From: Escherichia coli
Lineage (GTDB): Bacteria; Pseudomonadota; Gammaproteobacteria; Enterobacterales; Enterobacteriaceae
DNA length: 3,815 nt
Assembly: GCF_003334335.1 (NCBI RefSeq)
Contig: NZ_QOWQ01000081.1
Direction: 5' to 3' (one strand)
The notes under the pieces were generated by a model. The model searched no databases. It was not told the DNA's origin and saw only the letters and a program-made list of their open reading frames with translations. Shown piece by piece: positions 1-802 of this stretch. Position numbers and translations under genes: made by a program. Position 1 is the stretch's first letter, and each line of letters begins with the position of its first letter.

Positions 1-260
1 ACGGTCTGGCGGAGGCGGACAATAACACAGCGGAAAGAGCGCTTCGTGCAGTCTGTCTCGGAAAGAAAAATTACGTGTTCTTCGGTAGCGATCACGGAGG
101 CGAGCGTGGTGCACTGTTGTACGGGCTGATCGGCACCTGCCGGTTGAATGGTATCGATCCGGAAGCGTATCTGCGCCATATCCTGAGCGTACTGCCGGAA
201 TGGCCTTCCAACCGAGTTGACGAACTCCTGCCATGGAACGTAGTACTCACTAATAAATAA
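1..260 (+). CDS. IS66-family transposase (TnpC-type), C-terminal ~85 codons; 5' end outside window
   Basis: Frame 3 is open from the window edge to TAA at 258-260. It reads GLAEADNNTAERALRAVCLGKKNYVFFGSDHGGERGALLYGLIGTCRLNGIDPEAYLRHILSVLPEWPSNRVDELLPWNVVLTNK, matching the conserved C-terminal region of IS66-family transposases as I recall it. The listed 75..260 ORF is just its internal GTG-to-stop segment. Confidence 0.85.
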   Translation, partial: GLAEADNNTAERALRAVCLGKKNYVFFGSDHGGERGALLYGLIGTCRLNGIDPEAYLRHILSVLPEWPSNRVDELLPWNVVLTNK

Positions 261-290
261 GCGTCAATACGGTGCTCCGTTGACGCTTAC
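1..290 (+). mobile_element. IS66-family insertion sequence, right (3') end; rest of element lies upstream of the window
   Basis: Holds the transposase C-terminus (below). Sequence after the stop ends ...CGCTTAC at 284-290, the reverse complement of the GTAAGCG motif I recall as the IS66-family terminus. A perfect 10-bp inverted repeat (258-267 TAAGCGTCAA / 280-289 TTGACGCTTA) sits at the tip. Exact boundary is +/- a few bp. Confidence 0.75.
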
Positions 291-759
291 GACGTATGTT
301 GCCACACAGGAGGGATGGTTGTACCTCGCTGGCATCAAAGATGTTTATACGTGCGAAATTGTCGGCTACGCCATGGGAGAGCGCATGACAAAAGAGCTGA
401 CAGGTAAAGCCCTGTTTATGGCGCTCAGGAGCCAGCGCCCACCTGCCGGGCTAATCCACCACTCTGATCGAGGTTCACAGTACTGCGCATACGATTACCG
501 GGTCATACAGGAGCAGTTTGGTCTGAAAACATCAATGTCGCGTAAAGGTAACTGTTACGACAACGCTCCGATGGAAAGCTTCTGGGGAACGCTGAAAAAT
601 GAGAGCCTGAGCCACTATCGTTTTAATAACCGGGATGAAGCCATCTCAGTAATACGGGAATACATTGAGATTTTCTACAATCGTCAGCGTCGTCACTCTC
701 GTCTGGGGAATATCTCCCCGGCAGCCTTCAGGGAAAAATATCATCAGATGACTGCTTAA
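291..759 (+). pseudogene. IS3-family transposase OrfB (DDE integrase catalytic core), N-terminally truncated fragment
   Basis: Translation ...TYVATQEGWLYLAGIKDVYTCEIVGYAMGERMTKEL...HHSDRGSQYCAYDY...SMSRKGNCYDNAPMESFWGTLKNE...IEIFYNRQRRHSRLGNISPAAFREKYHQMTA carries the hallmark IS3-family OrfB motifs (EGWLYLA, HSDRGSQY, GNCYDNA...ESF, FYN..R.HS.LG..SP). The upstream part of orfB (N-terminal half of the catalytic domain), orfA and the frameshift site are all absent. It differs from the canonical IS3 OrfB, so this is another IS3-family member. Confidence 0.85.
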
Positions 760-802
760 AAAAAGAACAAATGGTAGTGTCCGCTATTGCCAGTACACCT
801 CA
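291..802 (+). mobile_element. IS3-family insertion sequence, 3' portion (orfB C-terminal half plus right terminal repeat); truncated or interrupted at 290/291 by the IS66-family end
   Basis: OrfB homology begins immediately after the IS66 terminus. OrfB stops at 757-759, and about 43 bp later the sequence ends ...CCTCA at 802. The reverse complement of that end (TGAGGTGTACTGGCAATAGCGGACAC) resembles IS3-type TG...GCAATAG.GGACAC terminal repeats. The minus-strand adhesin frame starts at 803. Confidence 0.7.

Follow-up and report, generated by a model that had tools for sequence, protein, structure and literature searches.

ISEc43 and IS600 are both well-known insertion sequences of Escherichia coli. 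The former, a 2541-bp element of the IS66 family, has been described within ORF S023 of SGI1-B-Ec1, where it is flanked by an 8-bp direct repeat, and this insertion has been proposed as an epidemiological marker (PMC6531882). The latter is a 1264-bp element of the IS3 family, of which nt 753-1264, including the right inverted repeat, are shared at 99.6-100% identity with the locus analysed here.

This locus, referred to below as the window, takes up contig QOWQ01000081.1 (3815 bp) in full, which belongs to the draft E. coli assembly GCA_003334335.1 (Table 1); the left ISEc43 junction lies outside it. We compared the window with related loci, designated here by the letter L and a number, and with annotated copies of both elements. 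The comparison indicates that an ISEc43 copy probably made a simple insertion into a defective IS600 remnant located in an E. coli chromosomal island. The joint is an unremarkable nested insertion of two familiar E. coli elements and belongs to already known biology. It is also an example of a second junction concealed by the boundary of a draft contig, and a corrective to the naive view that an interrupted insertion sequence must have its other half somewhere.

Table 1. Position, strand and characteristics of the features assigned to the 3815-bp window.
Feature	Position	Strand	Remarks
ISEc43 right end, IS66 family	1..290	+	ISEc43 nt 2252-2541; tnpC 3' end and terminal inverted repeat
IS600, IS3 family, nt 753-1264	291..802	+	orfB 3' part and right inverted repeat
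Predicted 8-bp ISEc43 target, GACGTATG	291..298	.	single and uninterrupted in relatives
SPATE gene fragment (EspI per PGAP in relatives)	803..1708	-	directly abuts IS600 right end (802)
Degenerate IS5-family remnant, frameshifted	~1709..2540	+	~87% identical to IS903B; boundaries approximate
AraC-family regulator gene, intact, WP_021523955.1	2584..3381	-	31% G+C
Second, different IS66-family element, terminal 66 bp, GTAAGCGGCTCG...	3663..3728	+	cut by IS3
IS3 left end, TGATCTTACAC...	3729..3815	+	orfA ATG at 3795; within IS66-family fragment

Results

Right end of ISEc43

The first 290 nucleotides of the window agree at 289 of 290 positions with nt 2252-2541 of the intact 2541-bp ISEc43 in L016, a reference copy that carries tnpA, tnpB and tnpC (PGAP name 'IS66-like element ISEc43 family transposase'), and at 290 of 290 with the copy in LT601384.1 (L010). 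The lone substitution relative to the common ISEc43 allele is the A at window position 98, which the LT601384.1 copy has too; identity to the ISEc23 copy in L001 is 94%. In this segment tnpC is read in frame 3 up to a stop codon at 258-260. The 85-aa TnpC fragment (window 3-257) matches the extreme C-terminus of the NCBIfam profile NF033517 transpos_IS66 (positions 327-385 of 387, E = 3.4e-20) with 72.5 bits; a fragment can be expected to fall short of the whole-protein cut-off of 180 bits, as it does here. At the DNA level, the fragment shows 99.7-100% identity to annotated ISEc43 tnpC. The nucleotide matches to ISEc43, like those to IS600 described below, have E = 0 and stand far above chance. 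Several contigs that start at ISEc43 nt 2252-2254 were set aside as a selection artefact of an exact partial-product look-up.

A perfect 10-nt palindrome (258-267 and 280-289), for which a fold of -12.7 kcal/mol (z = -4.98) was calculated as single-stranded DNA, lies just before the terminus. Positions 284-290 read CGCTTAC, so that a terminal inverted repeat of the GTAAGCG type is present and the element ends at that repeat, with ...CCGTTGACGCTTAC at 290. The same terminal base was found in five other copies located in unrelated contexts, whose flanks (CGTCATAC, GGTTATGT, GACTATTA, TGTTATTG and GATTACGT) diverge right after GCTTAC and are unlike from the first nucleotide. Since the five copies have this end in common and differ immediately beyond it, the terminus at 290 is exact. 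A later terminus, suggested by BLAST matches that reach window positions 293-309, was rejected, because these matches extend by chance, with gaps, into flanks that are unrelated. At the opposite end, intact copies begin with GTAAGCGTAAA; the ISEc43 left inverted repeat is GTAAGCGTAAAGCC..., and the longer left-end sequence is GTAAGCGTAAAGCCAATGCCGTCTG.

The IS600 remnant

Window 291-802 is identical to many annotated IS600 copies (512/512, 100%) and agrees at 510 of 512 positions with nt 753-1264 of the full 1264-bp IS600 of L030, which is flanked by a 3-bp duplication. The stop codon of orfB occupies 757-759; at 802, the right inverted repeat ends with ...CACCTCA. The 155-aa OrfB translation matches positions 224-369 of the 369-position NCBIfam profile NF033516 transpos_IS3, and its score of 195.7 bits exceeds the curated cut-off of 160. 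This copy is not a complete IS3-family element, as it comprises nt 753-1264 only and is devoid of orfA, the frameshift site, the 5' part of orfB and the left end; it is a remnant, a dead fragment rather than a functional member of the family.

In relatives, the protein sequence across the break reads ...NQVWVAD-L-TYVATQEGW, the break falling within the Leu codon, and in the IS600 part of the window the reading frame picks up again at ...TYVATQEGWLYLAG. The IS3-family motif W..D(I/L)TY marks the first Asp of the DDE triad. By this pattern, the Asp that precedes the broken Leu codon (VAD|LTY) would be the first catalytic Asp. The window part of orfB would thus be missing the first Asp and have retained, by motif, the putative second Asp (HSDRGSQY) and the putative Glu (MESFW).

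Order of insertion and island relatives

Window 291-3815 is collinear from end to end, at 99.6-99.9% identity, with nine related E. coli loci (among L002-L009, L012 and L013), and is matched by L010 and L011 in pieces broken by other IS insertions. Across nt 752/753, IS600 is uninterrupted in all of the 12 loci checked (L002-L013), and none of the 12 carries ISEc43 at this site. In ten of them, the stretch between IS600 and the stop codon of an M48 metallopeptidase gene is collinear as well, and the order of the island is hsdR, M48 peptidase, IS600 remnant, SPATE fragment, IS5 remnant, AraC regulator and IS66 fragment/IS3. Because no base is missing from the end of ISEc43, whereas IS600 is broken within its sequence here and continuous in the relatives, ISEc43 is the newcomer: IS600 was the resident target and ISEc43 the incoming element, and the opposite order is excluded. 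In the pINV RMDEC465 locus (L017), the IS600 and IS66 neighbours stand in the opposite order, which makes them irrelevant.

These results agree with most of the initial annotation, which had been made from the window alone. Its placement of the IS66 terminus at 290, and hence of the junction at 290/291, is borne out to the base by the comparison of the ends of five copies. The IS3-family OrfB homology that it saw resuming immediately after the junction is IS600 from nt 753 onward, with the frame continuing at ...TYVATQEGWLYLAG, and the lack of orfA and upstream orfB on this side is equally real, since only nt 753-1264 are present. Of the two origins that it had offered, insertion of the IS66 element into a resident IS3-family copy finds support in the uninterrupted IS600 of 12/12 relatives and in the complete ISEc43 end.

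The resident element itself, as seen in the relatives that lack ISEc43, is an internal-deletion derivative in which nt 3-32 are joined to nt 607-1264 (L002 6581-6610 and 6607-7264). The two parts overlap at the deletion joint by 4 bp (CTTC), and the left inverted repeat has a change at its nt 2 (TA vs TG). Judging from these sequences, orfA, the frameshift region and the initial part of orfB were already gone when ISEc43 arrived. For IS600, the insertion of ISEc43 was functionally without effect; the remnant already had neither orfA nor the initial 5' part of orfB.

Predicted target duplication and far junction

In the proposed simple insertion, ISEc43 (2541 bp) would have transposed between IS600 nt 752 and 753, and GACGTATG would have been duplicated as its 8-bp target, the second copy being a prediction. 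As the resident IS600 was already internally deleted, at most ~186 bp of it is possible on the far side of ISEc43. This stretch (nt 1-32 plus 607-760) would precede the far (left) ISEc43 end and terminate in GACGTATG; the predicted IS600 stub (nt ~607-760) would end with ...CAGGTCTGGGTGGCGGACCTGACGTATG, or, with further bases, CTGACGTATG, and be followed directly by GTAAGCGTAAAGCC. Beyond the stub, a spacer of ~345 bp and then the M48 peptidase gene would be expected. A 29-aa ORF is the only one across the predicted left junction.

The initial annotation had expected the missing IS3-family 5' half, i.e., orfA and 5' orfB, beyond the far IS66 end, an expectation that does not hold for a resident element that was already internally deleted. 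It had also proposed to take missing IS3-family 5' sequence as a sign of deletion; with orfA lost before ISEc43 arrived, its absence on the far side would be uninformative and no argument for deletion. Its expectation of an 8-bp duplication, on the other hand, is the right size for ISEc43, as seen in four related copies and in the published insertion (PMC6531882). As precedents for a clean insertion, such duplications flank ISEc43 in L016 (GATTACGT, 3791-3798) and in L010 (CGTCATAC, 11391-11398), as well as ISEc23 in L001 (GGTTATGT, 3592-3599). A different, 2698-bp IS66-family element in L010 (17057-19754) has the 8-bp duplication GTTGTACC, which corresponds to IS600 nt 780-787.

Other features of the window

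The SPATE fragment, 302 codons of open frame from the passenger domain, shares 98.6% identity with S6 peptidase genes of plasmids and had no match in NCBIfam. It is truncated by IS600 on one side and by the IS5-family remnant on the other. The AraC-family regulator gene occurs in 83 of 5,426 complete genomes, and an AT-rich region (3382-3660) lies upstream of it. In relatives, this gene is located near a set of ABC/FtsX/TolC-like transporter genes and, in L006, near a Dispersin-family gene. The arrangement is reminiscent of enteroaggregative E. coli and its AggR/Aat/dispersin module, although here it is chromosomal.

Window 3663-3815 forms a second IS-in-IS junction. In L002 (10190-11440), a 3-bp duplication, CAG, is present at both ends of IS3, and IS66-family sequence continues beyond. 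A three-level nest was observed in LT601384.1, namely an IS110-family element in ISEc43 in the IS5 remnant; there (L010 11399-15383), ISEc43 is split by the IS110-family element at the equivalent of window position 72.

Rarity of the junction

The exact 24-mer that spans the junction, TGACGCTTACGACGTATGTTGCCA, had no match in GTDB species representatives and JGI metagenomes, and megablast of junction-spanning windows found no contiguous match in 5,426 complete E. coli genomes and PLSDB (72,556 plasmids). The six megablast records that cover positions 1-802 do so in two separate pieces each. An exact look-up of the 159-aa chimeric ORF (280-759) likewise returned nothing on record. Within everything searched, the single carrier record of the ISEc43/IS600 junction is contig QOWQ01000081.1, which is listed for two samples.

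Discussion

A simple insertion of ISEc43 into the IS600 remnant is the most probable origin of the joint. The main competing explanation is that the far side has been rearranged, by recombination between two IS66-family copies or by an IS-associated deletion or inversion, such that the IS600 stub was removed or relocated and no duplication of GACGTATG would be found. Many IS66-family copies and fragments crowd the island, and a precedent of this kind is available in L018 (NCCP 13963, 4290/4291), where the right side of an IS66-family element adjoins IS600 nt 625 with no matching duplication, its left side being occupied by an unrelated IS66 fragment. However, of the five IS66-family insertions examined that are visible in full, four had intact 8-bp duplications, and the window itself bears no sign of rearrangement. 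We consider a rearranged far side unlikely, though a serious alternative.

Far less probable is a joint created by the assembly of a short-read draft contig and absent from the cell. Such a chimera would be compatible with a short, repeat-bounded contig and with a junction that occurs in none of the other collections searched and in one assembly record with no independent replicate. Nevertheless, the joint coincides to the base with the end of the IS66 inverted repeat, the position expected from transposition, and the two partners share no sequence or k-mer at the joint that could have misled a de Bruijn graph. The reverse history, with IS600 arriving next to or within an IS66 element that was already there, has next to no probability. 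Adjacency alone speaks for it, whereas the joint lies at nt 753 inside IS600, not at either of its termini, and ISEc43 reaches its terminal base there; in addition, the IS600 remnant occupies the same place in 12 relatives without ISEc43 at that site.

The IS66 family is usually regarded as non-selective. Three independent IS66-family ends lie within a 165-bp stretch of the IS600 remnant in different strains, at nt 752/753 (window), nt 780-787 (L010, with an 8-bp duplication) and nt 624/625 (L018, with no duplication). The remnant may be a regional hot spot, or the cluster may merely reflect ascertainment bias. That IS66-family elements prefer as a target the IS600 remnant or some feature of its sequence or structure is a speculative and rather doubtful idea; if true, it would be a target preference undescribed for the IS66 family. 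The 8-bp targets or flanks are faintly alike (GACGTATG, GATTACGT, GGTTATGT, GACTATTA, TGTTATTG (L015 3791, 5907) and CGTCATAC). Six targets are too few to call a preference.

Because the joint is absent from all collections searched, it can be used to recognise the lineage to which the source strain (GCA_003334335.1) belongs, and its sole value is that of a strain- or sublineage-specific marker. Its biological weight is small, with two well-known insertion sequences nested in an IS-rich island and a target that was already dead.

Compared with the described copies, the window shows the same GTAAGCG-type terminus and subterminal palindrome as ISEc43, of which it contains the last 290 nt only. 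The closest counterpart is LT601384.1 (L010), which has the same island and the identical ISEc43 allele with A at window position 98. Its ISEc43 is inserted at the equivalent of window position 1983-1990, as against 290/291 in the window, and its copy of the same IS600 remnant carries a second IS66-family element 27 bp away from the site that ISEc43 uses in the window. Since the 1983-1990 site is intact and single-copy in the window, the two ISEc43 insertions are independent events, and derivation of the window from the L010 arrangement by deletion or recombination was rejected on the same grounds. The ISEc43 of SGI1-B-Ec1 is the same insertion sequence, again in a mobile element; its target is a different one, and of the two junctions of an ISEc43 insertion one is visible here.
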